Under the pieces are notes generated by a model. It did not search any database. It saw only the letters and a program-made list of their open reading frames with translations, and was not told the DNA's origin. Made by a program: the position numbers and the translations under genes. From NCBI GenBank assembly GCA_001599295.1, contig BCGN01000010.1, positions 62,001 to 126,000 of the forward strand: DNA of 64,000 nt, given 5' to 3'. Positions 1-39,748 of this stretch are shown piece by piece (the stretch's first letter is position 1; each line of letters opens with the position of its first letter). Source of the DNA: Sporopachydermia quercuum. Its lineage: Eukaryota.

Positions 1-1
1 G

Positions 2-331
2 GACCGATTACTTGAGAATGGCAATTCAAGTTCGGAACACGGCTCAACATCGGAAGCAGACTCAACTACAAGTTCCAGCGTAACTTCAACCTCGGCTGCG
101 CCATCATCTAGACGTCGGATGAGGAAGAACACTTGCTATGAAGCAGTTTATCATAAAGCGTCTAAATTACTCAATGGATACCCTCTAACTAAAGGACAAC
201 AAATGGGAGGATTCAATCTCGGCAGTACTGTTGTGTTGGTTTTTGAAGCTCCCCAGAACTTTGAGTTTACTACTAAGATAGGTCAGAAGGTTAAAGTAGG
301 AGAAGGTTTAGGTGTTATTAAGGATGATTGA
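2..331 (+). CDS. PSD1: Phosphatidylserine decarboxylase 1, C-terminal part (gene starts before the window)
   Basis: Frame is open from position 2 (DRLLENG...) to TGA at 329-331. It contains GGFNLGSTVVLVFEAP, the LGST pyruvoyl autocleavage motif of PSD1. Confidence 0.93.
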   Translation, partial: DRLLENGNSSSEHGSTSEADSTTSSSVTSTSAAPSSRRRMRKNTCYEAVYHKASKLLNGYPLTKGQQMGGFNLGSTVVLVFEAPQNFEFTTKIGQKVKVGEGLGVIKDD

Positions 332-2134
332 GGAAATATAATTGTGGGGTAAAGTTCGAATTCGAATTTGATGTTGCTACTGCAGTAATTGGAATACCAG
401 CATTTATTGTTGTTGGGTTCTTGCACTAATTATAGCTCTGCTACAATAGTTCATTTGATACTACAAACATTCATTTGGTTTCTTTCATATATAGACTGGT
501 TCAAACTACTAGTGAAAAGGATCCTTTGATATTGAACACTATCATCAGCATATAGATAAAAATTATTCAATGCATATTTCATTTTAGTTGATTTCTTGCT
601 GCATAGTAGAGTTAATACAGTTAATGTTCAGCGAAAAACAAATAATACATAATTAATATACTCAAGTTTTTATTGACGGCATTCATTGATTCTTTCATTA
701 ATGTTATAATTAATGTTTTGGTTAATTAATATAACAGAGTTAGTATATCAAAAAACAATGATTTATGATCAATGAATATTAATGTAATTATTGCAGTAAT
801 TGATACGTAATTTATGTAAAAGTTACCACAATCATTACTATTACATTTATAAATTAATGATTCATTAATGCATATGTAATTAATCAACCTCTTATTTACA
901 TTTATTACATTTTTACGGCAACCAATTTTTTTTTCACAATTTCTTCTGAATAGAAAACACACAAACTGAGTATTTGTTAGTTGGCCTTGAATACAAAAGT
1001 CTTGTCAGCAGCAAATGAACAGAAATAAAGCAATCAGTAATTATTGCAATAAGTCGATCTTTCGTTTATTTTCTTGGTATAAATGAAAATAAATGCTCAT
1101 TAGAAGTACAGTAATGAACAACATACGCTTGATGTAGAGCAAATAAGCTTAAATTAAAACTGATTTTTAGAATGCACTATATTATTAGCTTAGCAATAGC
1201 ATAGAGATCATACTGAAAACGTTTCTGCTTCAGGTTAAACGTAGCCAGTTGATTATAATTTGCAGCCGTAAATTCAAGCTCAAGTTTGATATAGTCACAA
1301 GTATTATATTCATTTGTTATCAGTCATTGGTACTAAGTTTAATTCATGCTATTTATACTGTTTATTCAATTTAAGAAATTTATGCTATTAATGCAATTAA
1401 TGTTCATAGCTATAGCGTTGATGAAGATGTAATTTGAACCTTTGAGCCTTTAATGAACTTATCAATATATATATGAGCAGCTCGTTGCGCTGTGTATTTC
1501 ATTGCCGAAATGCTCATCAAAGTTCTCTTGAAGCAACATTGTGTACAGAGGAAGTGATTATTCAGAGCGAGTGACAGGTTTCCCGTTCGATATGAAATCT
1601 GAGGAATAAATGTAATGCAATTGGTGGATGAACTTTATTATGTTATTATGTTATTCTGCATAAAATCTTTGCTGTAAACAGACAGGAGTGCCGGGACGGA
1701 ACGGAGCAGAGCACGTGGAAGGCCAATAGTTGGCAGATTGTTTCCGTAGTTGTTCGCTGTTTCGGATGTTTCCGTGTCATCCCGAATAACGGAAACAATC
1801 AGAATCTCTCTTTCCAAATACCAATTAAAATCACAAACCAATTATTTTGCTGCATCGTTTACTACTACATCGATTCCGCTATTTTCTCCGTTTACTGGTC
1901 TATGTTTTCCACTATCCGTCTCAGATAGTGTCTCCGGTATCCAGAAATCACTCCCCAGGAATATTCGCCCATTTCATCATCTTTTATGCTACACATCCGA
2001 ACTGTTGCTACTATGATTGTTTTAGGTTCAGACGACAAAATGCGTATATTCTTCTTCCGCTTCTTTCCGAAATCTTTTCCTAAATCCGCTCTTATCTTTT
2101 CCTGCATTTTCTCTTATCCTCTCCGCATTTCTTC

Positions 2135-5100
2135 CTATGACAAAAACTTCTTCTTCAGCATCCAAACGTTATTCTTCAAATTCTCAACAAAATGCGTGTT
2201 CAACGGCTGATTTTCACCATTTTCATTGAAATCGGAAAAAGCAAATAGTAATTTCATATTCCACAAATCGTCCATCGATTGTACATTTGAAAGAGTTGAC
2301 TTTAAGGATAATTTTGTATCTGTGATAGTTGACGAGAGGATAATAGGCTGGAAAGGGTCAGTATTAGCTAGATTGGGTTTATGTTAGTATCTGAATGTGG
2401 GATAAGGTGGAAGTAGAGGAAACAATAGAATAAAAAGAGAAAATGATGCTATGCAACCGTTTCCGTAATTCCCATTATTTTTCCTTTCTTCCTTCTTTTT
2501 TTTTTTTGGGAAAAAAAAGCGGAGACTTTTCCCATTAAAAGAACAGAACAATAGAATACTTACCGCTTTTTATCACGTAATTCAGCTCTGATTCATCGAC
2601 ATTGCGGAAAACATTCAACCGAGAAACGGGTTTCAAAACATCCGAGGTCTCAGAATCAAATTCCGCTTCCCGAGATTTAAGCCGAAATTTCACCCAATGC
2701 CGGGAGTTTAGATTAGATTTCTTGGCGATATATATAGTATAATTTCCGGCAATAAACGATCGGGTTAGGAAAGACTCGGAATTGAACTTTAAATCGACAG
2801 GAAAACACCCATCTCGTTCCGTTTTGATCTGAATGATCTCGGATATTTCCGGAATCAATGCCGGAGTCTTAACTGTGATACGCGTACTATTGCCGTCATT
2901 ATTTCCGCCTCTATCTGAACCAGGTTTCAAAGTTATCTCCACTTCCTGGATAATCGGCATCTTACTCTCTGAATCTCGGACAACCAAGCATCGTCGGTTT
3001 ACCGCTAATGCCCAGAAATGCCGAAGTGCTTGTAAATAAACTCCTTGATCTTCAGAATCTCTTGGCAGTAACGGATAAAATGATATGACCATGCATGCAA
3101 CTGAAAACACGTCCCGGGAAAACCCGTATTGTCCGCCTCCGAGAAATAAGATCCCCAGACCTAAGCTCGATGCCACGTTAACGCCAAATTTCTGCGTTTC
3201 CAATACTTGGTTATGTAATATTCGAAGTCTCCGAAGTACTCGTAGATCACCCGTACCGGCGACAATCACCGATAATAACAATCCAAGTAGTCCAGTAAGT
3301 TCGGACACAGCTTTCCGGGTCAATTCGGAATCAAATCTCCGAGCTTCTAATCCCGAGATTCGGAAAAACTGGTCGAAAACTGATTCAATTGTGTCCCGAG
3401 CTTCGGAATTGGACGTCGATGCAAACCTCATTGCTATGGCAAACGCAGCTCCGGCGATAATGTTAAAATATCCAAGCTGGGAGCTGGAAAGCTCCGAGAT
3501 TTCGGATAATGAGTACTTCTCGGATAAAACCGGTGGGACTTGTTCGTTTATCCATTGCAAATTGGGACGTATTTCCGACCAGCAGATTAAATTCCGGCTT
3601 AATACTAATATTAGAAGTAAATCTGGTCGGATGTAATCTAATAGTTGAATAGTATTAGGTATACAAAGCCGTTCATACATGTATTTCTCTTCTGTTTGTA
3701 GAAACATAAACCCGAGTGCTAAAATCCCCCCGCTTCCGCTTTGGTCGTATTCTATCCGAGTTTGGAAGTCCCTTTTCCCTATTGCCAAATTAAGTAGCCT
3801 TTCTTCAAGTCGCAAATCGCCTAATCCGGCAGGAGGCCGACCTCGGCCTAGGTTAATCAAACCTAAACTTATCCCTGCCGAAAGTCGATAAGCTTCTGTC
3901 CCATTTCCGGGGCTCACATCTATTCCATCATTGCTGTCCGATCCCGACGGTGTCCCAGATATCTCGGATAACTGAATTTCACACATTCGACGATGCTGGC
4001 TTCCGAGGAACAATAAACCTAATCCAATCAACCCCGCAGTTTGCACTTGCGGATGCACATTCAGGTTCGACGACCCCGCAGGAAGCATTGCTATCACATG
4101 CACAGAGAGAATTTTAGTAAGCATAGAGTTCATAGACCCTCGGGCTGAGGCCGCCATTCCGATGAGTAAACCTACCGATGTGTAAAGGTGCTTTGGCCCA
4201 AGGTAGTTGTACATATGCCACTCTTCCAGATGACGCAAATGGCCATTTAATCCGAGGCCCAAGAGGAAACCGGAGTGATTCGGAGTTAAACCTTCGGTAG
4301 GTTTATTGAAAACGACCCAGGATCCGGATATTCCGGCGAAATCTCGGGATATACTTAACCCCGCATTCACCCCACAATGGAAGTTGGCCCAGTTAAGTGA
4401 GTTATCCGAAAACTCGGATTTATCCGGGAATAAAGTTCCTAAATGGGGTTTAATTTGTACACCAAGATTAAGTTTCGGAATAGGACATTTTTCGGTTAAA
4501 AGCGGAACTCTGGCGGAAAATCCAAGGGCGGATTTGCCGAATGCAGCGGCTAAAGTTCTTATTGCTACCGAAACAGTTAATTCGTTCCGCTTATTGATTA
4601 CCGAGCTTTCCGACTCAACTTCTGCTTCAAGCTCAATTTCCGGCTCATTTTCGGCGTTTGGTATCCGAGTAATTCCGTTTATGGCTTCTGTTCTGGTCGA
4701 AAACCCTATGTTGGGTGTAACTTTATTAGGGAAAGTTATTATCTGGGGTTTCGTATTCTGTAGTAGCTTCTGGGCTTCCGCAAATCTCCGATCAGTTGAG
4801 AAAATTAATCGAGTCACCGCTATCCGATCCGCCTCGTACCGAGAGTCCCATGGACTCACAACCTCTGGATCTCGGAGCGAATGCAGTAAACTGCGGATGT
4901 CGGAAGTTTTATCAGAAGATGCCGACATTCTCGGTAAAGATTGGAATATATCGGAAGAGGTTAAAGCTAAAAGGTCTGTTCTGCCCGTTAATTGCAATTG
5001 AGCCTTCAGCTGAGTTTCATTTGTTGTTCCGAGCCTTTCCGGTTCAAATTCCGATGCCGAGGCTAATTCTGAAGTTAATTCTGATGAGGAGAAACTTGTA

Positions 5101-7220
5101 GAACATCCGAGAATAGAGGTTTTCAAGGGAACGGAGATTCCGTCGGGAAAAAACTCTAAATCTCGGGCCGAGATACCTAATTCTGCCATCATATTGATAA
5201 CGTCACGAGCGGAAAATGCCGAAGACACAATACCTTCATATAGTTTTAGTACAGCGAATATCCGAGGGGTTACAAACTCATCAATCTCCTCTGAGCCTTC
5301 GGCCAATTCCGACAACGTAATCAACGGAATTATCGGGCCGCGGAATAAACTAACTAGTGATTCTGTCACATTGGGCGGAGTTTTAACTATTTCCGGTAAT
5401 AAAAGTCGAGATTTCCGGTCGAAATCACCGTTGCCGAGATCATAGTAGTAGATCCACTTATCTGACCATCCGAGCCATGCACAGAGCTGACGAATTAAGG
5501 TGCCGATATTATTTACATGTGAATTATCCGGTGCTGTGGTGTCTAACTTAAAATCCTCTCGGATTAAATGCAATCCGAGAATTATCGAAGGTAGAAGGTC
5601 GGATAGAATAGCGACCTTTGGTTCAGAATTATTCGGATAAGGGAATTGGGATAGAAATCCAAATTGGGGAATATCCCATTCCGAGTTTAACTCCCAATCG
5701 GGAAAACAAGCAATGAAGTATCCAAAAATCACGTACACAAATGCCTCCCATTCGTTCTTACTCGAAGAATACCGTAAGGCCGAAAACCATAAAAGCCGAG
5801 CTTGCTGATAGATTTGATCTCCGGCTAAGATTCGGAATATCTGTAAACCTCGGGACACAATCTCTGTTTTGGGAGATAGAGTCAAGGTTAACTGAACCAC
5901 TGATGNTTGTGCGTCGCATGTAAGGTACAAATTGTCATGAGAATAGCCGAGAAAAGTATGGAAAGATAGATTCAGCGGGATTGGTTCCGAGCTTAGATTC
6001 CGAAACGGATCAATGAGTTTGAAGTTTCGGGAATTCTCGGAAACTATAATCAGGGCAGGGTCTGATTTAGGGGTTTTGTGGCAATTCCCAGGCGAGTGTC
6101 CAAGTAAATTACCTGATTTGTCCGAGTTACTGTAATTCGGGTGCAGAGATGGTTTGGAATAAATGCCAATGAAATCTCGGGCAGCAAAAGTTGACCGAAA
6201 TTGAAACTTTGGAACATTTATCGGGCCGGAAGCGGAACGGAACATGAATAAGCTTGCTAAGTTAACATTCATATGGAGAAGAATTAGCACCATTTGATCG
6301 TCGGAATCGATTAAGTCGGCTTTATGGATGCCGAAATCGGCCGAGACTCTGAACTGATTTATTTTTGTAACCACTAAGTCTCTTCTAAGCATTGAAACTT
6401 CTAGTAAACTTACGGGATTATTGTTTCCGAAATCGCCTGAAGGTTCAAACGAGGAAACTCGGTTATCTTTCCCAATTGAGTCAAATTGACCGTGTTCTTC
6501 CGATACCGGAAGTCGAGATGCCGAGCTTATCCGCCGAGATGAGCTTCTTCTCCGGGCATTTCCTCCTAATTGGCCCGAAAATCCTAAATGACGCTTGGCT
6601 AATGATCTCATATGATACACAAATAAAACCTCATTAGCTAAAGTTACAAACAGAGAGGATCGATTATCCGGTGACACAAACACAAGATCCTCGGAACCGG
6701 AAATTGCCGAAGTCGATGAGGACACAACTGTGCCTAAATCAAGTATCGGATCAATCATTGAAAAAAAGATTGGAGCAGTCGTTGGAAGTTGTAGTTCCGC
6801 ATCCGAGATTTCGGGCTTGCGCTGAAGTATTAATCCCCGATCGTACGGAAATACCCGCTCGGGTTTAAAAGGAAGATGTACCACGTGAGTTCTTCCATCA
6901 GTGTAGTATATATGGCAGAATTCGGATATTATCACAGCCAACGCTTCGGAAGTGGATACGTAAGTGGATGAGGACACTGATGCCGAAGAAGATACGGAGG
7001 ATGACCGGAATTCGGTAATAACAGCATGATCTATAGAGGAGTTGTTGTAGGTGAGTGTTTTCAGTGGTAATCCGCCCTGTGTCCATATGGCTTTGTCTTT
7101 GTATATGTAAATAGTATCGCCATGTTTTGACATCAGAATTTTATTAGGAGTTTCACCGTCAGGAGGACCGTTGGGATGGTTGTGTGACCACGGAACAAAA
7201 GCTTCTACTGCGTTTTTCAT
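2135..7220 (-). CDS. APC1: Anaphase-promoting complex subunit 1; exons 7220-2564 and 2367-2135
   Basis: 1561-aa ORF with PC repeats (HSGFLLGLGLNGHL, SVGLLIGMAAS, LQALRHFWALA). Splicing out 2563-2368 adds in-frame ...ANTDPFQPIILSSTITD...DDLWNMKLLF...VENLKNNVWMLKKKFLS*, which resembles fungal Apc1 C-termini. Confidence 0.93.
2368..2563 (-). other. Spliceosomal intron near the 3' end of APC1 (196 nt)
   Basis: GTAAGT donor at 2563, TACTAAC branch point at 2389-2383, TAG acceptor ending at 2368; splicing keeps the frame. Confidence 0.88.
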
Positions 7221-8306
7221 TTTGGATCACAATATTGAGATTTCTTCCGAGATATCTTCCGTCAGTAGGTTTTGTTGTGGGAGCAACTGGTTGCCGCTTG
7301 AGAGCAATGGATTGTAGAATAACGGACTAATTGCCAGTTTGGCACAAAATACCGTCTTTCTAATAGTAAACAAACACGGAAGATCCAATAAGTCAATCTC
7401 TCATGTATTTTCGGCAGGATTTAATTTTGAGAACACATGGAAATAGGCATGGAAATGTGTGACCCATATTTTCAGTGCAGTAGATAAGATATGCATATTC
7501 ATTTATGTACATAGTAAAAAATGACAAATTGTTTTGGAATGACACAATGCGTTTTCAGTGATCATATGCAAGGAAAGTTATTAAGAGATAATTTCATAGA
7601 AGTGAATGACTGGTGCGTAACAGAGCAAATACCGATTAAAAAAAATTTTGTTATCAAAACTTTCTTATATTTGAAACTATGATGAGCTTTATATATTTAT
7701 TAAATCTACTATTGATTCAAATATATTCAATTGTTTTACTTGGTGGCAGTGAAGAATAGTAGGAAGTTGAGACATAATGTTAGAACTCTATTACGTCTTG
7801 ATAGATTTCATGTCATAGATATGTGAACCATTGTCTGTGAATAGAAGTAATTGCTTCTGTTGTAAAGTAGTTGATATGTTCTTCTACAACAGAACAGAAA
7901 GTTGGATGAAGCCAAGTAAGCATTATTATAAAAACCAATTATTTCATAACCAACAAAACATATTATGTCTTCTGTTTTCTCTTATATCATGTCAATCAAC
8001 TTATACTCATCTCATCTGTTCATGTCATGACTTGTCCCATGTCACCTTACTTTTCAGAAACCACTCTCTATTATGGGGCAATATTTATATAGCTATCCAA
8101 CAGTATTCATTGTTAACACTTGCCTTGTAGACATACATATACAACAATCAATAAAACAACTGTAAAATCTACAATAGTACTGTGAAGTCGCTTTCAATTC
8201 AATAAATTTATAGTATCTCAATCGATCAGTTGGTTTCGTTACCATATCTGCTTCCGCCCCAAGCATCTTTTCATTGTACGACTAGACCACGACATATCAT
8301 ATCACA

Positions 8307-8579
8307 ATGGGGGAATCTAACATAATAAGCATATTCAAACCAAGACCCGAAGGCGAAATTGAAGTAGAAGATTGTTTTGCTTGTCAAATGATGTCAGCAG
8401 CGTTTTTGTCCGGTGCTGGAATCTATCTTGCAACAGGGGCAGTGTTCAGTGATAAACCAAATCCTGCTGTCTCTGCGAGATGGAAAACATCTGTTAAATG
8501 GTTTGGTATGGCAATGATAGGTCTAGGGATTTACAGAGCAGGAGAAGGATTTGTATGGAAGAAAAATGAGTATTTTTAA
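8307..8579 (+). CDS. Small DUF4536-like (YDL157C/DMAC1-like) membrane protein, probably mitochondrial
   Basis: 90 aa with DCxxC (EDCFACQ) followed by two Gly-rich hydrophobic helices ending GIYR. Confidence 0.75.
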   Translation: MGESNIISIFKPRPEGEIEVEDCFACQMMSAAFLSGAGIYLATGAVFSDKPNPAVSARWKTSVKWFGMAMIGLGIYRAGEGFVWKKNEYF

Positions 8580-8711
8580 TTGAATATTCTCATGTAAATA
8601 GGAATATATGACAACGATATATGATTGATTTTAGGAAGTTATGATATGGGGTAATACTGTATTGAACAGTACAACTTATTCTTAAAAGGGAACAATTACA
8701 ACATTATTGTT

Positions 8712-9584
8712 CTATAATGCTAAGCGTCTTTTAGCAAAACAATAGAAAGTTGACCATTCAATTTTGATAACGGTTTCATCAGTCCATCCTAGTTTCTCTT
8801 TCAATTCATCAATGAACTGATCAGCAACATCTCGCTCATTAGGATTCTCTTCTTTCCAAGTATGGTAGCCACTCCAAGTAGTTACATAGCGTTTGATTTC
8901 AATTAAACGAGCATTTTTACCAATATATAAAGCCGTTGGTACCTTGTCACCTTTTTCAGGTTTATAAGTGACCAATTCAATGTTCTCATACAAATCATTA
9001 GGTGGTAGTACTGTAGGGTAGTAATACCTTAGAATGTCTCTGTTAGGTTGCTCCCAATAAGGACCAATGAATCTCGGATCATCATATGTGTATTTTGAGT
9101 ACAGCTCATTCGCTAAAGGACAGTCAATGAAAACAGGATCTTTATACATCCAAATAGCGAAAGTTCCACCAGGTTTCAACAACTTGCTTACGACAGAAAA
9201 TACCTGATGAGAATCAAACCAATGAAAACACTCAGCAGCAGTGATCAAAGAGAATTGTGTACCTGCTGCGAAATTAGTATCAACAGTCTCTGCTTTGGAA
9301 ATAATGAAGCTTACTTTGTTTTTAATATCGTCATGAGCACCATTTTCTAATGCTTCGTTTGCTTGATTGATCATTACTTTAGAAGGATCTGCACCAATGA
9401 TTTGTTTATCAACGAACTTAGCCAACGCCATTGTAGCTTCTCCTGGTCCACACCCTAAGTCAAGAGCAGTTTCTATGGAGGCATTGTGATATGCAATCAG
9501 CTTTTCATAAAACTGGTCATCATATGTTGGTCTGAACTCTAGATAGTTAGACGATGAGAAGTTGGAATTTGAAAAGGTAGCCAT
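8712..9584 (-). CDS. TMT1: SAM-dependent methyltransferase, trans-aconitate 3-methyltransferase (Tmt1/Crg1)-like
   Basis: MATFS...Y..FRPTY N-terminus, LDLGCGPG motif I, LITAAECFHWFD, LKPGGT, PYWEQP, TWSGYH. Confidence 0.8.
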   Translation of the reverse strand: MATFSNSNFSSSNYLEFRPTYDDQFYEKLIAYHNASIETALDLGCGPGEATMALAKFVDKQIIGADPSKVMINQANEALENGAHDDIKNKVSFIISKAETVDTNFAAGTQFSLITAAECFHWFDSHQVFSVVSKLLKPGGTFAIWMYKDPVFIDCPLANELYSKYTYDDPRFIGPYWEQPNRDILRYYYPTVLPPNDLYENIELVTYKPEKGDKVPTALYIGKNARLIEIKRYVTTWSGYHTWKEENPNERDVADQFIDELKEKLGWTDETVIKIEWSTFYCFAKRRLAL

Positions 9585-10333
9585 TGCAGGTAGTATGTAA
9601 GAATAGACACAGCAATTGAAGAAGAGTCAAGAGAGTTTTCCACCTTACAGAGCTTCGATCTATCAATCAAACCAGCAATCGAATCGAACAGGGAAAGTCT
9701 ATTTAAATAGTCATAAGTAACAGGTATTCCCGATGTTGATAACTAGATTATTCTAAGTGATGAGACACAATAGAGAATTAATCCGGGGTTGTTAGGGAAT
9801 TCAGATTTCTTAGATAGGAAATTTCGTTAGGTTGAAAAACCATGACATAACCTAGCAGAATAACAGAATTCGAAGAAATAATTTGGGCTGCTTCAAAGAT
9901 GAGATAATGATAATACTAGAAATATATTATGAACTCGGNTATCTTGTATTAAGCCATTGTGTGGTATTTATAGCTTGTAAATACAACAGTTGTTGATATC
10001 ATTTTATGCAAATGATCCTTCCGATACCGGTCCTGTAACGGAGAAAAGGTTAAACGTTAAATCTTTTACGGTCTAAACGGGGAATAACCAACTCTTCTCT
10101 TGAAATTTAATGAGGCGGAAATAATTTGAAGATGCACGTGACATGTTTGTAATCAGTGGTCCACTTCCATAAGATGGTGAGGTGAACCGAATTACTTCTC
10201 CTAAGCTTCAGTGCTTATATCGATGGCAAAGGCAACATCTAATCATATAACGGATATCGAATTGGAGGAATATTCCAAATAAACGAAGAAGAGACTTAAT
10301 TCGAGAATATAGCTGGAAGATAGAAAAGCATTT

Positions 10334-11089: not shown

Positions 11090-11977
11090 TACTGTGTCCT
11101 AAAACTAATTTCTAATCATATATTGTATTCTTATTCTTATATATTTAACATACTACATGCCTTTTATTATCTACATTAATGTCCTGGACTATCACGTGTA
11201 TGCCTGTTATATTGTTATTAAGATCAATGTACCCAATAGAGATGTGTTCCGTAAATCATGAAATTCTGTTCTGTTGCTTCCACCTATTGCCCACAATATA
11301 CCATATGATGGAATTGATAAACTTGAGTTCAAATAATTAATAATATTTTACCTCCGAATTAAACAAATCGGAAACTATGTAAGAATAAAGTTCTCCACCT
11401 CATGCAACGAATAAGGAAGCCTGGATTATTATTACTGTGCTCGCAAATTAAGCTTCTCCCTATACAGATCACCTACATGTAAGATGCATACAGCGGTCTT
11501 GTTCAGGTACCATTCAATGATACGGTAAAACATCGAAATAAATGATTAATGTGTTGTGAAGAAAATTAAAAAAATGGAGAAACAAAATTTGATAGTAAAT
11601 AGCTGGACTAGAGAATCAATCTCGCAAGTATCATAGCTGCACTACAACTTGAACATCAACCCTCGATAGTTGCTCTTCGTTCAATGTCTCATCATCCTTG
11701 ATTCTAAAAAATGCATCACATATGCTCATTACTTCACCTCGATTACTTCGATATCATGAGACAATTCATGTCCATACTTGAACACTTTGGAACCACTGCC
11801 AAACTCGGTCATTTTCTCGGCTTCTCAGCCCTCCAGCTCTCATTATTCCATTTGCCGTTCCGACAACTTCCGTGCGGCTGTATACTCCAACACGTACTTT
11901 GCATCACCAACTATTTCTTCCCTCCAGGAAACTATCGGAACTCTCTTCAAGTGATCCATCTCATTAAACTTTCCGCA

Positions 11978-12575: not shown

Positions 12576-15500
12576 ATGGGTACTGCTCCTCAAGTTTTAA
12601 CAGAGCTCTTGCAAAAGCTCACCATTTCATCAACTGAAGATGATCGTGAGGCTGCTGCTACTAATGTTGCATCATTCATCAATGGACCAATTGAAGAACA
12701 CAGCGCTCCATTTGCCTTTTTCGACGATTTGAAGAAAGCTTTGAATAACAAGAAGGACGTCAATGCTAGATTAGGAGCTCTCTCTGCTATCTCTCACATT
12801 GCCTCTGTCAACAACTTGTCACCCACCATTGAACCTCAAGTTGTAGCTTTGTTAGGAGATGTTTTAGCTTTGGTTGGTAACGACAAGCAAAATGATGTTA
12901 AGGCTGCCGCTACCAAGGCTTCCAAGGACATTGTCAGTGCTATCACTCCTTCCAGCATCAAGGCTCTTTTGCCTCCTATTACTGCCTCTATTGCTTCTTT
13001 CAAATGGCAAGAAAAGATTGCAGCTTTGGAATGTGTTTCCCTTTTGGTTGAAACCGCACCTATCCAAGTTGCTTTAAGAATGACTGAATTGATTCCTGTC
13101 TTATCTGAAGCCATGTGGGATACTAAGAAGGACGTCAAGGAACAAGCTTCCAAGACCATGATCAAGTGTACTGAAACCATTCAAAACAAGGATATTGAAA
13201 AGTTCTTGCCTGCTTTGGTCAAGTCAATTGCTCAACCTACCGAAGTTCCTGAAGTTGTCCATACGTTAGGTGCCACTACTTTCGTCTCCGAAGTTACAAC
13301 TCCTACTTTAGCCATTATGGTTCCCCTTTTATCTAGAGGTTTAGTTGAAAGAGACACTTCCATCAAGAGAAAGGCTGCTGTCATTATCGATAATATGTGT
13401 AAGTTGGTCGATGATCCTCAAGTTATTGCTCCTTTTATGGACAAGTTGTATCCTTCATTGAAGCACAACTATGCTAATATCGCCGATCCCGAAGCTCGTG
13501 GTGTCACCTTACGTGCCATCACCACTTTGAAGAGAGTTGGTGAAATCGGTGAAGATGATAAGATTCCCGAAGTTTCTACTGCTGGTGATACCGCCGTCAC
13601 TCTTAGAGAGTTGAAGTCCTTGTTAGACGAAAAGAAGATCAAAGTTGACCCCAAGTTCGACGTTGTCCTCAACTACGTTGCCTGCATTGCTGGTAACTTG
13701 ATTGACGAACGTATCGTTGACTCTGAACCTTGGTACTCCAACATGACTCCTTTCCTTACTATCTTCTTACACGAAGCTGAGGCCAAGGACATCACCGAAG
13801 AGTGGAGAAAGAAGGCTATTGCCAACATTCCTGGTGGACCTGTTTTCGAAGATGAAGATGAAGAAGGTGAAGAGTTATGTAACTGTGAGTTCTCTTTGGC
13901 TTATGGTGCTAAGATCTTGTTGAACAGAACTCAATTAAGATTGAGAAGAGGTAGAAGATACGGTCTTTGCGGTCCTAACGGTTCCGGTAAGTCTACATTG
14001 ATGAGAGCCATTGCTAATGGTCAAGTCGAAGGTTTCCCTACCCAAGATGAATGTCGAACTGTCTATGTCGAACACGACATTGACGGAACTCACGCTGACA
14101 CAGCTGTGTACCAATTCGTCTTGGATGATGGTAATGTTGGTACCGAAGAAGAAGTCAGAAAAGCATTGAACGATTTCGGTTTCACAAATGAAATGATTGA
14201 AATGCCTATTTCCTCCTTATCTGGTGGTTGGAAAATGAAGCTCGCTTTGGCCAGAGCTGTCTTGAAAAAGGCTGATATCTTATTGTTAGATGAACCTACT
14301 AATCATTTGGATACCGTCAACGTTGCTTGGTTAGTCAACTACTTGAACACCTGTGGTATTACTTCCATCATTGTCTCTCACGACTCTGGTTTCTTGGACA
14401 AGGTTGTTGAATACATTATCCATTACGAAAGATATAAGTTGAGAAAGTATAAGGGTAACTTGTCTGAATTTGTCAAGAAGGTTCCTTCCGCCAAGTCTTA
14501 CTATGAATTAGGAGCTTCTGAAGTTGAGTTCAGATTCCCTGAACCTGGTTTCCTTGAAGGTGTCAAGACTAAGCAAAAAGCTATTGTCAAGGTCCAAAAC
14601 ATGTCGTTCCAATATCCTGGTACCACCAAACCTCAAATCAGTGGAATTAACTTCCAAGTCTCCTTATCTTCCCGTATTGCCGTCATTGGCCCTAATGGTG
14701 CAGGTAAATCTACTTTGATTAACGTTTTGACCGGTGAATTATTACCTACCACTGGTGAAGTCTACGTCCACGAAAACTGTCGTATTGCTTACATTAAGCA
14801 ACACGCTTTTGCCCACATTGATTCTCACTTGGATAAGACTCCTTCTGAATATATTCAATGGCGTTTCCAAACCGGTGAAGATCGTGAAACTATGGACAGA
14901 GCTTCCAGACAAATCAACGAAGATGATGAAAACAGCATGAACAAAATCTTCAAGGTTGAAGGTACTCCAAGAAGAATTGCCGCTATCCACGCCAGAAGAA
15001 AGTTCAAGAACTCTTACGAATACGAATGTTCCTTCTTATTGGGTGAAAACATTGGTCAAAAGAATGAACGATGGGTACCTATGATGTCTGTTGACAATGC
15101 TTGGTTACCAAGAGGTGAATTGATTGAAACTCACTCCAAGATGGTTGCTGAAGTCGATATGAAGGAAGCTTTGGCTTCTGGTCAATTCAGACCTTTAACC
15201 AGAAAGGAAATCGAAGCTCACTGTGAAATGTTAGGTCTTGATGCTGAATTGGTTTCTCATTCTAGAATCAGAGGTTTATCTGGTGGTCAAAAGGTTAAGT
15301 TAGTCTTAGCTGCTTGCACTTGGCAAAGACCTCATTTGATTGTTTTAGATGAACCTACCAACTATCTGGATCGTGACTCTTTAGGAGCTTTGTCTAAGGC
15401 TCTTAAGTCTTTCGAAGGTGGTATTGTTATCATTACCCATTCCGCTGAATTCACCAAGGATTTAACTGACGAAGTTTGGGCTGTTGTTGATGGTAAGATG

Positions 15501-20231: not shown

Positions 20232-23200
20232 CTAATGCTTCTTCTTCTTTCCTTTTCCACCAGCACCTCCATTGCTACCAGCACTTGCTCCTTTGGATCT
20301 TGCTTTACCAACAGCTTTACTCATTGCATCAGGGACAACCAATTTGATCTTACTAACAGCAATAGGTAACAGCAAATCAGTATCTTTGATCTGTTTCAAG
20401 ATCTCCAGTTCTTTGGGCCAGGGGTAAAACTTGTCACTCTGGGTGGTATCAACCTTCAAAGGATTAGTAAACATATACAAACATTGATTGATAGCTTTGC
20501 CTTTCTTCAGGTTACCTGGTTGAATCTTCACTTTATACTTATACTTCAATAAAGCGTTCCAAGGACCAAATATTGGAACAAGATTAATAGGATTATCATC
20601 CGAATTCAATATAGGAACAATGGAATCAAGCTTATTAATATAGTCAGTATCCACAGCATTATCAGCGTTACTATTATCTAATAATTCCTGCTGTTTTCTT
20701 ATCAAACTTTCCTCATAACGTTTCTTCTGCTCCTGTTTTCTTTTCAATTGCTGTAGCCGTTGTAACTCTGCTTCCTCAGCAGCTTTCCTCTTTTCACTTT
20801 CCTTCTCAACACCTTTTAATGTCCCTAAAGCTTGCATACGTAGATTTCGCTCTTCTTCATCTTGATCTGCATATTTGGTTGCCATCTTCTTCAGTTTTCC
20901 TTTCTTTCCTCTTACTTTTGAAACAGAAGCATTAGTACCACCAGTAGATTTCTTAGAAGACACGTTCAATTCATCAAGCTGTGACATTATATCGTTTATC
21001 GTACTACTGGCAGCAGAATCAGAAGTAGAATTCATCTCGTTGTTAAAAGTATTGGCATAGTTTGAGATATCAATTCCTTTCTTCATTAGTTTTCTTTCCT
21101 TAGCCGAAAGGCGTTTCTTACCTGCGACACCAGCAGCATTAGAAGAGATACTATCAGAATTAGTATCAATACTGGCAGCGCTGCTTTTACTATCATCCGA
21201 TTCATTTTCAGTTTCCTTTTCATCATTTTGTTCGAATTGTTCTTGTTGACGCTTGAAACTGTCTAAACCGTAACGCTCTGCTTGGGACTTTAAATCAGAT
21301 TCATCATCTTTATCAGCAGCAGTCGCGGTTGAATACGATTCTGTCTTCTCACTATCATTATCATTAGAATTAGAGGATCCAATGATACTAGAACCAGCGA
21401 CGGCTATTGTAGTATTCTTACTACCATCAGAATTATTAATGTTATCAGTGGAAGCTTCGTCATTGCCTGGATTCTTAGTACTATCACCATCGTTTGTCTT
21501 TTCATCATTCTCATCCATAATTTCCTCCTTTTCATCTACATAAACACCCATCTGCTTCTCTCTCTCTGTTCTCATCTCCTTATACCGGTGAGTGGTCTCC
21601 TCATCAACTAACCAACCTATGGCAAAGCCCATCACCAACTGACTAGGCGGCAGAAATACCTTATCTCCAGTGATAGCAAATTCACCAGGTTGCATGCCAA
21701 TCTCTTTCTGAACTTGATTATACTTAACCCACCAGGCCGATGTAACCATTTTCGCTTCCCATGCTTTAGATGTAGACACTGCAAACGTTCCTGCCTGCAT
21801 TAATGCCATTGGTGATACTTCGTCAAACCCAGGTCTGTTTTTAACTATTAGAGCACAGGAGCCTTCAATATCACTTGAAACGTAAACATCACCAGGTTTG
21901 AAGTATTTAGCATACAGAATATCGTTTTGGGCACCGTCTTTGCCTCCTAAAACCANGAACCCATCACTGGAAATGAACCAGTAAAATTTCTCAAACCAGT
22001 AGGGCTGCCTCACAGATTTTAACTGTTGGATATCAGATTTTAGATGCCTTTTCATGTCTCTGGATATTTTATCCTGAGTAGATTTCAAAGCATAATCAGC
22101 CTGTTTTATCGTTTTGTTTTGTTGAAGAGCGGCTTGCCGCTTCTTATCAAAATAGGTAACTGCATTGGCCCAGGCAGATATGCCAAGATCTATCGATACT
22201 TCAGTAGTTTTAACAGGAGAAGACTTTCCACGGGAACGGTTACATGATATGGAAGAACGGCCAGAGTCTGAGTCAGAATCGGAAGAACTATCAGAAGAGC
22301 TGTCGGAAGAGTTTTCGGAATCCAATTCCGAGCCAGAACCGGAGTCAGATTTGTTATTAGAATCGAAATCTTCGTTGTAGTAACTAGGCAAGGGTAGTAT
22401 CACTTTCACCCTGTTATTTTCCAAATCCAAAGGCAGTTTGATATTGGTAGCTATAGGATCTCTTCTTGACTGTCTTTCGGTAATCAATTTCTCGATATTC
22501 ACCCAATCCATGCTTTGATTGATATATTTCAGCACATACTCCTTAACTTGTTCCACCAAATCAGCGTTATCCTGTATAGCTTCACCTTGCAATTGGGATA
22601 ATTTCTGCTGTGTTTCCAGCGATTCCAACCGTTTATCACGTTCAGCTTTGGCAGCATTCAAACGTTTATCTGCCAATTTCTCTTGTTGCAATACTTTCAA
22701 AGAAGCTTTGGTTGCTTCAACAGTAGAAAAGAACCTGTCAGCAGTACGATTATAACCAGAAACTTTGATCAATTCGTATGTTTTTTCTTCAGTGCCTTTC
22801 GGAACTAAAGGTTTAAAAGGATGGAAATCATCAAAAATACGACTTTTATCCTCAGGATTAATTCCAGAAGGTAAATTATCAACCGTAGCAGCAATAATGC
22901 TGGTAGCAACACTACTAGTGTTTCTACTGTTATCTTTATAGGCAACTATATAACCAGCTAAAGATTCAGGCTCCTGTTTAATGGTAACATTGATACTCTG
23001 TAACGTTTCGACTGACTTCTTGATCGCCTGGACTATTAAACTGACTTGTGAAGAGTCAACTGATGATATGTCAATGTTAGAGCTAAGAGTGTCAGGCTCA
23101 ATTCCCACTTCATATAACGATTTAGTGATTAAACCTGACGATAAATAGCTCAAATGTGAGTATAGCAACTTGGAAATTGAATACTGTTTCCTTTGCTTCT

Positions 23201-23825
23201 TCTGTCTCTTAGCACCAGGAGTTGCCACAGAGTTATTGCTAGCACTATTAACAGCTGTCTTTTCTTCCTCAGTTTTAACCCATTCAACTATATCTTGATT
23301 TTTCACTTTAGAAATATCGTCTAAAGTCAGATTTGAGTCATTCAGCATTTGTAAAGACTGGAAATTGTATTTGACACCAACAGAGATTCTTTGCTGACTG
23401 AGCTTCTCCGTCACCACTCTTTGGAAGGCTAATATTATATGGTCCTTATCAAGAAGAATAACATTGCCACCAGCGTAGAATTCTAAAACCAAATAAAATA
23501 AACCATCACTGAAACTCAACACAAGTACTCTGTCAGTACCTAATTGATAGATATCATTTAGCCTTCGTGTTTTCAAATGCTTTCTAAGCTTTGCTATAAA
23601 GCTGGATGGCACGGGAGCGGTTGGTCTTGCAAAATCTGTGAGGTGTACTCTGAAGCCAGAATCAACCAGCAGCATTCTTTTCTCATCAGGAATTGAGAAT
23701 TTCAGCAAAATGATGTTGGAACCAGTGGTAACATCGTAGATGTTCTGCAGGCGGAAACCTATGAGCTTTCTTTTCAGCTCTTGGGTGATGATTTGAAGGT
23801 CTAGCGAGCTGTAACGTTGTTTCAT
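20232..23825 (-). CDS. RQC2: Ribosome quality control complex subunit Rqc2/Tae2 (NEMF)
   Basis: MKQRYSSLDL, KLRKHLKTRRL, DRVL, WFEKFYWFISSDG, KYKYKVKIQPG..KKGKA. Confidence 0.96.
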   Translation of the reverse strand: MKQRYSSLDLQIITQELKRKLIGFRLQNIYDVTTGSNIILLKFSIPDEKRMLLVDSGFRVHLTDFARPTAPVPSSFIAKLRKHLKTRRLNDIYQLGTDRVLVLSFSDGLFYLVLEFYAGGNVILLDKDHIILAFQRVVTEKLSQQRISVGVKYNFQSLQMLNDSNLTLDDISKVKNQDIVEWVKTEEEKTAVNSASNNSVATPGAKRQKKQRKQYSISKLLYSHLSYLSSGLITKSLYEVGIEPDTLSSNIDISSVDSSQVSLIVQAIKKSVETLQSINVTIKQEPESLAGYIVAYKDNSRNTSSVATSIIAATVDNLPSGINPEDKSRIFDDFHPFKPLVPKGTEEKTYELIKVSGYNRTADRFFSTVEATKASLKVLQQEKLADKRLNAAKAERDKRLESLETQQKLSQLQGEAIQDNADLVEQVKEYVLKYINQSMDWVNIEKLITERQSRRDPIATNIKLPLDLENNRVKVILPLPSYYNEDFDSNNKSDSGSGSELDSENSSDSSSDSSSDSDSDSGRSSISCNRSRGKSSPVKTTEVSIDLGISAWANAVTYFDKKRQAALQQNKTIKQADYALKSTQDKISRDMKRHLKSDIQQLKSVRQPYWFEKFYWFISSDGFXVLGGKDGAQNDILYAKYFKPGDVYVSSDIEGSCALIVKNRPGFDEVSPMALMQAGTFAVSTSKAWEAKMVTSAWWVKYNQVQKEIGMQPGEFAITGDKVFLPPSQLVMGFAIGWLVDEETTHRYKEMRTEREKQMGVYVDEKEEIMDENDEKTNDGDSTKNPGNDEASTDNINNSDGSKNTTIAVAGSSIIGSSNSNDNDSEKTESYSTATAADKDDESDLKSQAERYGLDSFKRQQEQFEQNDEKETENESDDSKSSAASIDTNSDSISSNAAGVAGKKRLSAKERKLMKKGIDISNYANTFNNEMNSTSDSAASSTINDIMSQLDELNVSSKKSTGGTNASVSKVRGKKGKLKKMATKYADQDEEERNLRMQALGTLKGVEKESEKRKAAEEAELQRLQQLKRKQEQKKRYEESLIRKQQELLDNSNADNAVDTDYINKLDSIVPILNSDDNPINLVPIFGPWNALLKYKYKVKIQPGNLKKGKAINQCLYMFTNPLKVDTTQSDKFYPWPKELEILKQIKDTDLLLPIAVSKIKLVVPDAMSKAVGKARSKGASAGSNGGAGGKGKKKKH

Positions 23826-24060
23826 TGTGTTGAGGCAAGAGATAAAATTAGGTCTTCATAGGGTATAAAAGAGTGAAAGTGTAGTTGGAATAACAGTTAA
23901 TGCAAAAGATAAGATCTCTTACCAGTTTTCGGTGGTTTAAATTGATATTTTCTGTATTACTGCTTTCATTAGTAGGAGGAAATGAAGGTAATTGACGGCA
24001 GATCTATATATGTTGCAGACATCACGTCTCAGTTTAGTGAAAAAAGTAAAAGTTCAAAAG

Positions 24061-24067
24061 TTACCCG
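24061..24067 (+). promoter_or_regulatory. Reb1-type site TTACCCG upstream of RQC2
   Basis: Exact motif about 235 bp upstream of the RQC2 ATG; the same TTACCCGGC occurs at 32624 upstream of SWS2. Confidence 0.5.
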
Positions 24068-25074
24068 GCGAATTTAGAGAGCACACAAAGAGATATTATT
24101 AGGAGTAAATGGGAGTCAAAAGGATGTCTAGGAGAATTGAGAAAGTTATATTATAAATATTACAGGTAGCTTTAATTGCTCAAGATACTCAATGCTTGAG
24201 ATTAGATTGACATTTTGGATAAGTTGATAGTCTCAGTTTGTTGGATATAACTTCTGGTCACATTGTTCTCTTTTCAAATATTTGATGATATAATCAGAAA
24301 ATTGATAGTTTCCGCTGAACACACCCGATGAACATAGGAATTCAGTTATAAGACATCTTTTGATTATGAACTGTCATAACAGTAAGTTAACAATTTAACC
24401 AGAACAAGATCTCCCATGGTAACTTCTATTAACTGCAATACTCATTTCTAACTGGTTTTCTCATTTTTGCTTCCGTCGATTTATATGTGAAAGAAAACTA
24501 AATCTTCATAAGACTACCTAATTAGGTAATAAAAACCATTGCCGAGAGAAATATTCGGAGAAAAGTACCAATTTGTCACAACTGACAGGCAAACAACATA
24601 ACGCATCAAACAGATTAGCAATTTGTTTCTATTTACTAAATTCTTGAAAAGTAGTTCATCTATGGATACATCAAGCCATCAGTGTACCAGATGTAACAAT
24701 AAATAGCTTTCACTCTACTCAACCAATTTAAACTTTCTCAGTTTGCAGTATCATCGCATATCCCAAAACTTTACTTCCCCACCTAACTCTGAAATCAAAC
24801 AAAACAACATTTTACATCTTTTCCGTTATTTTTTGATTTTAGCCCTACCTTCTTTCTTCTCATCCTTATCTACGTTCTCTTATTGACACTCCTATAATTC
24901 AAAGTATTGATATATCAACATCTAATCAAAGTAGTTCTTTTCTAATTATGCGGTTTGATAAATTGTAGCTTACTCTACAACTGCTATGTCCAATTTTTGT
25001 ACTCCGGTTGTTTATTGCCGCTCACACTACCAGTCGATTCACTCAATCTCATAGGTGCATTCATCACTATCAAC

Positions 25075-26292
25075 ATGGGTAAAATATGGAATGCTTTGGC
25101 TAGTAAACTGAAGGAAAACAGCACACCAGCAGGTAATATAAATATCCAGACTTTTGCCGAGAAACTAATAGCAGGCGAAAGTAAAGTGGTTTTCATGGTT
25201 GGTGCTGGTATATCTACCTCTGCTGGTATTCCTGATTTCCGTTCTCCGGGTACTGGCCTTTATGATAACTTAGCTAAATTAGATTTACCATATGCTGAAG
25301 CTGTGTTTGATATTGAATACTTTCGTGAAGACCCGAAGGCTTTTTATACTCTTGCGACGGAGCTTTTCCCGGGTAAGTTTCGTCCTACTATTTTCCACTC
25401 GTTTATTAAGCTAATAGAGGAGAAAGGCTTACTAGAAAGGGTGTATACCCAGAATATTGATACTTTAGAAAGAATAGCTGGAGTTCCTGCGGAAAACATA
25501 GTTGAGGCTCATGGATCTTTTGCTACTAATCATTGTATTGACTGTAAAAGTGAAATGTCAACTGAAGACCTGAAAAGAGATATGGAAGATGAATCACTAG
25601 GAGGTATTCCAAAATGCAGCGAATGCGGTGGAATCGTTAAGCCTGATATTGTATTTTTTGGAGAAGGATTGCCCTCGAGATTTTTTACATTATGGGACGC
25701 TGACTGCGCGAATACAGACATTGCCATAGTTGCTGGAACATCATTGGCAGTGTTCCCGTTTGCAAGTTTACCAGAAGACGTTAGCAGAAACAGTATTAGA
25801 GTCCTAATCAATAAGGAAGTAGTAGGTGACTTCTTACATAATAGCAGACCTAATGATTTAATATTGCAGGAATCATGTGATGATGTGGCGATATTGATAG
25901 CTAGGGAATGTGGATGGTATGAAGACTTGATGAAGCTATGGAATGCTACTGAAATAAAAGGAGAAGAGGCGAATGAAAAACCTACTGATAGTGATACGTT
26001 GGAGAAGATTATGGAAAAGATGGAACAAGAGGAGACAGAAAAGGCTGCTAAGAAAGAAATAGAAGATAAAGATGTGGATGAACTAGAAGCAGGCATTGAA
26101 AAGGTGTCTTTGGGGGACAACAGCGTGGAAGACAAGAAATCCGAGTTGAAAGTTGAAGAAGAAGGAAAGGACGAAGAAAAACATAGAGGAACCGAAGATG
26201 AGAAGAGGGAAGAGGAAAATGAAAAGAAAGAGGATGACAAGCTTAATGAATCAAACGAGTTTGATTCGCCAAAGACCAATCCCAAGATATAG
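25075..26292 (+). CDS. HST2: NAD-dependent sirtuin deacetylase (Hst2/SIRT2 class) with acidic C-terminal tail
   Basis: GAGISTSAGIPDFRS, YTQNIDTLE, EAHGS, CxxC...CxxC, KPDIVFFGE, GTSL. First ATG is at 25075; the ORF-track start is a TTG. Confidence 0.93.
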   Translation: MGKIWNALASKLKENSTPAGNINIQTFAEKLIAGESKVVFMVGAGISTSAGIPDFRSPGTGLYDNLAKLDLPYAEAVFDIEYFREDPKAFYTLATELFPGKFRPTIFHSFIKLIEEKGLLERVYTQNIDTLERIAGVPAENIVEAHGSFATNHCIDCKSEMSTEDLKRDMEDESLGGIPKCSECGGIVKPDIVFFGEGLPSRFFTLWDADCANTDIAIVAGTSLAVFPFASLPEDVSRNSIRVLINKEVVGDFLHNSRPNDLILQESCDDVAILIARECGWYEDLMKLWNATEIKGEEANEKPTDSDTLEKIMEKMEQEETEKAAKKEIEDKDVDELEAGIEKVSLGDNSVEDKKSELKVEEEGKDEEKHRGTEDEKREEENEKKEDDKLNESNEFDSPKTNPKI

Positions 26293-39708: not shown

Positions 39709-39748
39709 CACGTGACTTAGCACGTGATATCAGTTTTAGGTCACGTGA
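39709..39748. promoter_or_regulatory. Cluster of three CACGTG (bHLH, Cbf1/Pho4-type) sites upstream of URA3
   Basis: CACGTG at 39709, 39721 and 39742. Confidence 0.6.

Follow-up and report, generated by a model that had tools for sequence, protein, structure and literature searches.

The window, by which we mean the whole 64,000-nt stretch of DNA analysed here, comes from Sporopachydermia quercuum (GCA_001599295.1, contig BCGN01000010.1, positions 62,001-126,000 of the forward strand), a deep-branching budding yeast. Two converging genes lie at its left end. The 3′ end of PSD1, encoding phosphatidylserine decarboxylase, occupies 2..331 on the plus strand as an ORF that is open at the window edge (Pfam PF02666, E=3.2e-12). 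APC1 faces it on the minus strand. Its exon 1 (2564..7220; Pfam PF12859, E=8.4e-25) is contained in an ORF of 1,561 codons at 2535..7220. Reading of the sequence and frames predicts an intron at 2320..2563, with a GTAAGT donor and a CAG acceptor, and an exon 2 at 2135..2319 that carries the stop codon; the frame 2135..2383 agrees with the C-terminal motifs of APC1 homologues. In public sequencing runs, contigs of about 200 kb span the APC1 locus.

The trinucleotide CCG, or its complement CGG, is concentrated in a domain that extends from a first site at 1691 to a last one at 7412, with about 45 sites per kb on both strands equally, compared with 7.3 per kb over the remaining 56.6 kb. In total, 260 sites are found in 1690-7420 (5,731 bp) and 412 in 7421-64000 (56,580 bp), a 6.2-fold difference. 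The five 1-kb bins of 2001-7000 hold 34, 49, 52, 47 and 48 sites, and the 56 bins of 8001-64000 between 0 and 15. A preliminary description of this DNA had noted continuous density from about 1690 to about 7420, and this holds, though with a hole at 2124-2457 that has only two sites. Its term "CCG/CGG-saturated" is too strong: APC1 uses 229 of the 487 CCG/CGG attainable by synonymous choice, or 47% of capacity, compared with 9-12% in four other ORFs tested.

Measured by distances from the coding sequence, the domain coincides with the APC1 unit, overrunning the ATG by about 190 bp on its upstream side and the stop codon by about 440 bp. The 5′ flank of the gene (7221..7412, minus strand) still belongs to it, with seven sites and a sharp drop in density beyond. 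At the opposite end, a cluster in 1691..1800 combines nine CCG/CGG with one CACGTG and three copies of TGTTTCCG. Non-coding DNA is no denser in sites than coding DNA: exon 1 carries 49 sites per kb, the APC1 flanks 35-43 and the intron 16 (4 sites in 244 bp). Exon 2, with two sites, and half of the intron are CCG-poor.

The excess resides in the DNA and is not a by-product of the protein or of codon preference. Given the protein and the codon usage of the window, exon 1 should contain 60.0±7.5 CCG/CGG; it contains 229, and the maximum in 1,000 simulations was 87. These sites occupy all three frames (29/48/27 CCG and 31/53/41 CGG in frames 0/1/2) and, on the mRNA strand, amount to 104 CCG and 125 CGG. 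While CCG/CGG is enriched 6.2-fold relative to the rest of the window, other G+C triplets are enriched 1.8- to 2.6-fold and GpC 1.16-fold. CCG/CGG accounts for 230 of the 315 CpGs in the domain but for 376 of 1,149 outside; CpGs in other contexts occur at 14.8 per kb in the domain and 13.7 per kb outside. The CpG excess is thus limited to CpGs inside CCG/CGG. Vertebrate CpG islands have a high observed/expected CpG ratio in all CpG contexts and a G+C content above about 50%, and are linked to absent methylation. The dense domain is no island of this type: the ratio reaches 1.13-1.28 in the bins of 2001-7000, compared with 0.35-0.97 in those of 8001-64000, but G+C is only 38-46%. Outside the dense domain the window avoids CpG, with a ratio of about 0.6.

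A gene-sized domain so sharply unlike the neighbouring DNA in composition could be foreign, acquired by horizontal transfer or introgression from a CCG-rich donor, or could be an assembly artefact; a word-based protein search also returned only four APC1 homologues, the best at 33% identity. Once codons touching a site are masked, however, the GC3 of APC1 is 0.331, the value of 18 other ORFs (0.331), and the codons free of CCG/CGG contact follow native usage. In the PDB, S. cerevisiae Apc1 matches best (E=3.5e-116), and APC1 and PSD1 are, as we take it, convergent neighbours in S. cerevisiae too. Positions 1-9000 of the window were recovered undivided and with zero differences, continuous across both domain edges, in contigs of three runs from two studies, which may come from the same strain. 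A foreign or artefactual origin is therefore highly improbable. APC1 is a native, intact gene in its ancestral location, and the CCG/CGG excess in this gene and its short flanks is real.

The protein has shifted as well. Codons rare elsewhere are frequent in APC1, with CGG making up 34% of arginine codons (3% elsewhere) and CCG 37% of proline codons (6% elsewhere). Serine-glutamate dipeptides number 29, whereas the two closest homologues have 4 and 6, and codons touched by sites show the substitutions K>R, K>S, L>R and L>P. Sites are placed with indifference to protein conservation: sites touch 0.23, 0.25, 0.21, 0.22 and 0.21 of the codons for residues common to 0, 1, 2, 3 and 4 of the four homologues, so that density is equal at invariant and variable residues. 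The overlay is specific to CCG/CGG, independent of frame, symmetric between strands, superimposed on native codon usage and bounded near the ends of the gene.

Such an overlay might have arisen without function, through a local quirk of mutation or repair, confined to a transcription unit, that makes CCG/CGG faster than it is lost. The fit of the domain to one transcription unit, the strand symmetry and the drift of the protein to residues of CCG/CGG-bearing words agree with such a process. We nevertheless regard it as unlikely. None of the one-step precursor words of CCG/CGG is depleted (TCAGA and TCTGA together, 19 observed vs 16.3 expected), the less constrained intron and flanks are not denser than exon 1, and invariant residues carry sites as often as variable ones. 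Sites are also more evenly spaced than random and avoid very short gaps: the coefficient of variation of the gaps, 0.84, lies at the 1% quantile of random placement, the variance/mean of site counts in 60-bp bins is 0.62, and gaps of 1-4 bp occur 6 times where about 35 are expected. No process that would write a single trinucleotide is familiar to us, though a local mutational process of a kind we have not conceived keeps some small probability.

Around the triplet itself the consensus is weak, tCCGa or ttCCGa. The flanking bases contribute about 0.7 bit in all, and the "motif" therefore scarcely exceeds CCG. TTCCGAA-type words number 9 in the domain, compared with about 0.4 expected at the background rate. 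A distinct preference appears in spacing. CpG-to-CpG distances of exactly 10 bp occur 18 times against 6.0 expected, and more than 17 were seen in none of 5,000 random placements; the over-represented pairs, one helical turn apart, are direct CCG-N7-CCG and inverted CGG-N6-CCG. Most gaps have other lengths, with 21 of the 229 accounted for by such 10-bp pairs, and a search for longer-range site periodicity gave none (best power 5.7, below the 95% threshold of 8.8).

The spacing bears on the possibility that the signal acts in RNA, as CG-centred words for an RNA-binding factor or through CCG:CGG folding, to control the stability or translation of APC1 mRNA. The domain approximates the presumed transcript, the intron is poorer in sites, and many sites create codons that are rare in the window. 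Phasing at 10 bp is, however, a property of duplex DNA, the enrichment of both CCG and CGG on the mRNA strand is needless for a single-strand reader, and exon 2 is no richer in sites than the intron. Folding z-scores are weak and differ little between the strands (sense -0.54, antisense -0.71; two control ORFs, 0.02 and -0.30). An RNA-level role is, in our judgement, quite improbable.

Adjacent to the dense domain lies the gap between the two genes. At 332-2134 it is, as had been described, the longest of the five convergent gaps when ORFs of 150 aa or more are counted (341-1112 bp for the other four). The part at 332..1690 is unique, AT-rich and CCG-poor, with 5 CCG/CGG in 1,359 bp. The tract of about 80% AT that had been described is also present: 635..934 is the AT-richest 300 bp of the window at 80%, and the next best reaches 75.7%. 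Whatever the scale between 200 and 1000 bp, the AT-richest tract of the window falls in the gap (at 1 kb, 73.7% vs 69.7%), and the AT-richest 100 bp, at 693-792, reaches 84%. The tract is thus only modestly richer than other intergenic DNA. The word ATTAATG/CATTAAT is locally in excess, with 9 copies in 696-1396 compared with 0.8 expected from other intergenic DNA. The longest inverted-repeat pair in 1-8000 is only 29 nt at 72% complementarity. Self-BLAST of the gap gave only matches of 16-19 nt, and no repeats were found within it or against the rest of the window. None of the nine stop-to-stop frames of the gap reaches a curated Pfam cut-off, leaving no retroelement domains, and no Rfam family or tRNA was found in 332-1690. 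Short-read contigs cross the gap.

The preliminary description had CCG/CGG dense on both sides of this gap. The right flank is as claimed, and six sites do occur in 1..120 (at 4, 33, 40, 51, 93 and 116), within a Ser-rich linker of PSD1, but this left cluster is unexceptional: at least six sites are found in 217 of 56,461 background windows of 120 bp (0.38%), at four loci, one of which is a Ser/Glu-rich linker resembling that of PSD1. CCG is scarce in the final 210 bp of PSD1 and in the 3′ flank of that gene (one site in 121-676). An island of CACGTG and TGTTTCCG had likewise been placed at the inner edge of the domain and is indeed present at 1712-1790. TGTTTCCG occurs at 1739, 1767 and 1790(-), two direct copies and one inverted, which represent three of the four copies in the window (1.14 expected). 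The CACGTG at 1712 is less distinctive, since this word is common in the window (13 vs 5.15 expected).

These elements had suggested a centromere with the AT-rich gap 332-1690 as core, in which a Cep3-like zinc-cluster protein would bind the flanking CCG-dense DNA; such a flank would be related to CDEIII but dispersed over kilobases. Point centromeres consist of a Cbf1 site, then at least about 80 bp of very AT-rich CDEII, then CDEIII with a central CCG; each chromosome carries exactly one, to which CBF3 and a single Cse4 nucleosome are bound. This order is absent here: the CACGTG is 22 bp from the first TGTTTCCG, with no AT-rich CDEII between, and the AT-richest 100 bp lies about 900 bp from this edge. 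The resemblance to CDEIII of Saccharomycetales, read by Cep3 of CBF3, is in the ttCCGa bias beside AT-rich DNA with a CACGTG nearby. Each chromosome, however, has a single CDEIII of about 25 bp, and CDEI, CDEII and CDEIII keep a fixed order (CDE consensus partly after PMC13017519), whereas the present array has about 230 sites over 5.7 kb of a presumably expressed gene, on one side only.

Among other known architectures, small epigenetic regional centromeres of the Candida and Clavispora type occupy the deepest GC trough of their chromosome with an ORF-free CENP-A domain of 3-5 kb; the gap here is just 1.36-1.8 kb, and its AT maximum leads the 64-kb window by a small margin. The large flanking inverted repeats of the Komagataella, Barnettozyma and Candida tropicalis type are absent from 1-8000, and the gap lacks the repeats and Pfam retroelement domains of Ty5-cluster centromeres, in which a large intergenic region houses clusters of retrotransposons or LTRs. 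Proto-point centromeres, in the available part of PMC13017519, have an AT-rich core below 300 bp, a non-transcribed region below 2.5 kb and flanking motifs of about 20 bp; set beside them, the locus offers a 300-bp tract of 80% AT in a 1.36-kb CCG-poor gap. With the proto-point or motif-defined centromeres of Saccharomycodales and Phaffomycetales it shares a short AT-rich core, a modest intergenic region and loosely organised short flanking motifs containing a GCG or CCG trimer, but those motifs, as far as the available parts of these sources describe them, are 17-21 bp long, present in one or few copies and restricted to centromeres (PMC13017519; PMC12711049). Here a word of 3-5 bp recurs in hundreds of copies inside a gene.

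In favour of a centromere, the AT-richest tract and the longest convergent gap adjoin the CCG domain, TTCCGAA-type words are enriched, and three TGTTTCCG with a CACGTG mark its inner edge. RQC2, HST2 and ULP1 types are among the window genes by Pfam, and their S. cerevisiae counterparts presumably lie within about 20 genes of CEN16, which we count on the same side. The parts of the literature available further describe yeast centromeres as very diverse and turning over in situ (PMC12711049), and Cep3 and Ndc10 as older than point centromeres, with Cep3, Ndc10 and Skp1 conserved far beyond point-centromere yeasts (PMC13017519). The same parts describe nothing alike (PMC12711049; PMC13017519), and report centromere positions as largely conserved across three orders (PMC12711049). 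Against a centromere, too, the domain is one-sided and asymmetric about the gap, ending in the APC1 5′ flank some 190 bp from the start codon; the left flank is CCG-poor beyond a cluster equalled at four ordinary loci; the AT tract leads by little; the gap is free of LTRs and other repeats and is spanned by short-read contigs; CACGTG is common; and what would serve as the flank is a gene that is essential and presumably expressed. Nor, as we take it, does any centromere lie between APC1 and PSD1 in S. cerevisiae. The anatomy within the window leans against a centromere, which we consider unlikely here, and nothing found shows that the CCG/CGG excess marks one. There is a similarly small chance that the array is a landing platform for Cep3/Ndc10-type adaptors beside an AT-rich core, either as a "dispersed CDEIII" centromere, encoded in sequence at the kilobase scale, or as a centromere boundary keeping an essential gene free of centromeric chromatin.

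Density blind to conservation, coding DNA at least as dense as non-coding DNA, even spacing, the 10-bp peak and undepleted precursors are all selection-like features, and we infer a selected rather than mutational origin of the overlay. Our preferred explanation, to which we assign a probability of roughly 0.4, is that native APC1 bears an array of sites, placed by selection, for a protein of the zinc-cluster type that reads CGG. Selection would have placed about 230 evenly spread triplets over the APC1 unit of about 5.7 kb as a dense half-site array. The obvious candidate reader would be of the fungal Zn2Cys6 "zinc-cluster" class (Gal4, Ppr1, Hap1, Cep3). It would coat the DNA of APC1 and determine, in cis, the chromatin or expression state of the gene, possibly so as to shield an essential gene from any effect of the AT-rich gap alongside. 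Sites of the Gal4, Ppr1 and Hap1 type are paired CGG triplets at fixed spacing. Here, too, the enriched word is the exact CGG/CCG half-site, in 6.2-fold excess, and pairs at a helical turn are enriched (18 vs 6.0), as expected of a Zn2Cys6 array. Known Zn2Cys6 sites occur in few promoter copies, unlike the present gene-wide coding overlay that alters codons and amino acids; we know of no precedent for a gene-wide array of this kind. A uniform coat fails to explain the CCG-poor exon 2 and half of the intron. None of the 20 window ORFs scanned with Pfam is a zinc-cluster gene. The proposal is drawn from a single locus in a single genome.

If selection wrote about 230 copies of a trinucleotide across an essential gene, it has overridden codon preference and even amino-acid choice. 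Such a natural protein-coding sequence would carry a second, dense, non-coding code, and would point to a DNA-reading system acting at gene scale in a manner not described for fungi. Should one such domain exist per chromosome, it would define a new sequence-defined centromere type and bear directly on the route by which Cep3 and other zinc-cluster proteins acquired their role in specifying centromeres. A "dispersed CDEIII", if true, would represent, in a living yeast, a stage intermediate between regional centromeres and genetically defined ones.

The CCG/CGG signal is real and very strong. A dense run of CCG and CGG triplets (hereafter sites), which the preliminary description had placed at about 1690 to 7420, has its first site at 1691 and its last at 7412, with 260 sites in the 5,731 bp of the domain versus 412 in the 56,580 bp to its right, a 6.2-fold difference. 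In the five bins of 2001-7000, CCG and CGG together number 34-52 per kb and CpG observed/expected is 1.13-1.28; the corresponding values for the 56 bins of 8001-64000 are 0-15 and 0.35-0.97. Between 2600 and 7400 the density forms a plateau of roughly 10 sites for each 200 bp, which drops off in the space of 200 bp on the right; the run has a hole at 2124-2457. The domain corresponds to the inferred APC1 gene with a 5' margin of about 190 bp and a 3' margin of about 440 bp.

The minus-strand ORF at 2535-7220 matches the Apc1 N-terminal domain in Pfam and, among PDB sequences, Apc1 of S. cerevisiae (E=3.5e-116) and human APC1 (about 1e-104). A putative two-exon model on the minus strand fits the reading frames, with exon 1 at 2564-7220, an intron with a GTAAGT donor at 2320-2563 and exon 2 at 2135-2319, in whose predicted peptide the homologues' C-terminal motifs recur. 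In the putative intron, 2478-2523 consists of a run of T and then a run of A, a stretch that read alignment skipped as a repeat, and one of the 18 single N bases found across the window falls in exon 1 (5906). APC1 is a native gene. Its codons without CCG/CGG contact have a GC3 of 0.331, equal to that of the other genes, with broadly similar usage, and this native background weakens the idea that APC1 was acquired from a foreign source. APC1 and PSD1 are presumably convergent neighbours in S. cerevisiae as well. An assembly artefact is likewise made less credible by independent contigs from three DNA runs of two studies, possibly of the same strain, which carry 1-9000 unbroken and without differences and reach 10.7-43 kb beyond the left window edge. 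Since these contigs do not differ, they offer no polymorphism from which the direction of change at 1-9000 could be read.

The surrounding genes are those of an ordinary yeast, with 19 of the 20 long ORFs named by Pfam, including PSD1, APC1, EF3, URA3, an RQC2-type NFACT protein, a Sir2-family deacetylase and an Ulp1-type protease. A 434-aa ORF (34129-35433, minus strand) is without a Pfam or NCBIfam family. EF3 and URA3 share 74-78% identity with named budding yeasts from many orders and have no closer match. The host is therefore a member of the Saccharomycotina, the budding yeasts, and no sequenced species among the named matches is closely related to it. A search for a full-length PSD1 protein from the host organism did not find one, the best representative being 58% identical. 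A 12-kb stretch (20232-31969) brings together the RQC2-type, Sir2-family and Ulp1-type genes named by Pfam. Their S. cerevisiae counterparts (YPL009C, YPL015C and YPL020C, respectively) sit at most about 20 genes from CEN16, so the window may derive from an ancestral block linked to a centromere.

The signal resides in the DNA and not in the protein code. Sites occur in all three frames of APC1 (29/48/27 for CCG and 31/53/41 for CGG in frames 0/1/2) and in both flanks of the gene. Exon 1 holds 229 sites, versus 60.0±7.5 expected for the APC1 protein if encoded with the codon preferences of 18 other ORFs (maximum of 1,000 simulations, 87). Of the sites that synonymous choice would permit, APC1 uses 47%, and the four further ORFs examined use 9-12%. 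Codon usage as an explanation is ruled out by the sites in all frames, the excess over simulation and the native usage at untouched codons. The excess is also specific to CCG/CGG. The remaining G+C triplets are 1.8- to 2.6-fold more frequent in the domain, mostly through overlap with the sites, while GpC rises only 1.16-fold and CpG outside CCG/CGG amounts to 85 in 5.73 kb (14.8/kb) versus 773 in 56.6 kb (13.7/kb); general GC-biased conversion is rejected, as neither of the latter two is raised. Site neighbours are weakly biased: 52% of sites have T at -1, and 48% have A at +1.

Several lines of evidence favour selection acting on how densely the sites occur. The fraction of codons touched by sites is 0.23, 0.25, 0.21, 0.22 and 0.21 for residues common to 0, 1, 2, 3 and 4 of four homologues (n = 744, 280, 240, 176 and 121). 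Sites at conserved residues are silent, and those at variable residues are accompanied by amino-acid changes, among them K>R, K>S, L>R and L>P. Site density in coding sequence (49/kb) is at least as high as in the flanks (35-43/kb) and higher than in the intron (16/kb). None of the one-step precursor words of CCG/CGG is depleted, and single-step context-specific mutation was rejected on this ground. The APC1 protein itself shows pressure toward CCG/CGG: it contains 29 SE dipeptides, where its two nearest homologues have 4 and 6, and compared with that pair it is poorer in Lys and richer in Arg, Pro and Gly. In the other two homologues, which are more distant and belong to other fungal groups, Lys and Arg contents resemble those of the window protein.

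The sites are also spaced more evenly than chance, with a CV of 0.84 (the 1% quantile of random placement), a variance/mean of 0.62, 3 of 80 60-bp bins empty versus 6.1 expected, and 6 gaps of 1-4 bp where about 35 are expected. CpG-to-CpG distances of exactly 10 bp number 18 in the plateau versus 6.0 expected, with 5,000 random placements never exceeding 17, and 21 versus 6.4 in the whole domain; direct and inverted pairs share this excess alike. Longer-range or nucleosome-scale periodicity is absent from the domain (the best period, 168 bp, has a power of 5.7, short of the 8.8 that marks the 95% random maximum), and no polarity switch between CCG and CGG occurs along it. A signal acting at the RNA level, in the APC1 mRNA, is weakened by the 10-bp phasing, by the equal enrichment of CCG and CGG on the mRNA and by folding z-scores that are weak and alike on both strands, on which RNA structure was rejected.

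The preliminary description had read the domain as one flank of a candidate non-canonical centromere, with its AT-rich core in the gap between PSD1 and APC1 (332-2134). The AT tract (635-934), the six sites in 1-120, the CACGTG and the three TGTTTCCG all lie where that description put them. The window's AT-richest tract and the longest of its five convergent gaps do adjoin the dense domain, and the site bias resembles the core of CDEIII, the CCG-centred point-centromere element. In the literature, yeast centromeres are very diverse, some being defined by short motifs with CCG (PMC12711049), and Cep3 and Ndc10 are reported to predate point centromeres (PMC13017519). However, the AT tract is only about 4 points above the next best, CACGTG is common across the window, and the gap DNA is unique and free of inverted repeats, LTRs and retroelement domains. 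The domain, moreover, is one-sided and follows a gene. Left of the gap there is a cluster of six sites in 1-120, within PSD1; the last 210 bp of PSD1 and its 3' flank are site-poor, and the same count per 120 bp is found in 217 of 56,461 background windows, which fall at four loci. No such structure is described in the consulted portions of PMC12711049 or PMC13017519, and the main text of the former names none of APC1, PSD1, HST2, ULP1, RQC2, HAT1, CHL1 and CTF19. Given these points for and against, the window cannot decide between a centromere and other readings, and we consider a centromere here unlikely.

One of the background clusters (22197-22399) falls where the RQC2-type ORF encodes a Ser/Glu-rich segment with TCG-GAA and TCC-GAG words; the others are at 9959-10146, 11756-11974 and 13475-13602. 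The left cluster in PSD1 is like the RQC2-type one, a Ser/Glu-rich linker with TCG-GAA words, and the latter shows that such linkers generate small CCG clusters in this genome. Within the gap, a hidden gene or RNA was rejected: no Rfam family or tRNA was found anywhere in the window, and of nine gap frames eight were without a Pfam match and one was sub-threshold (16.1 bits, cut-off 22.8). ATTAATG/CATTAAT occurs nine times in the AT-rich gap (696-1396) versus 0.8 expected from the window's other intergenic DNA, and ATTAAT and TAATTA are 6-7 times above expectation there; the ATTAATG/CATTAAT excess may reflect a cluster of homeodomain-type sites or no more than low sequence complexity. Elsewhere, CACGTG (Cbf1-type) occurs three times inside 40 bp (39709-39747) between the URA3 ORF and that of a 702-aa F-box-like protein (40077-42185, minus strand, Pfam). 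This protein has no NCBIfam family, and it was rejected as a Ctf13 relative, its PDB matches including none to Ctf13 and none better than E=0.083.

Our literature search, which surfaced papers on CBF3 and on yeast centromeres, found no description of CCG-dense domains or genes, and a further one by two systematic gene names came back empty. As the best, still tentative account (probability about 0.4), the domain would be a selected, gene-wide array of candidate half-sites for a putative CGG-reading protein of the zinc-cluster type.
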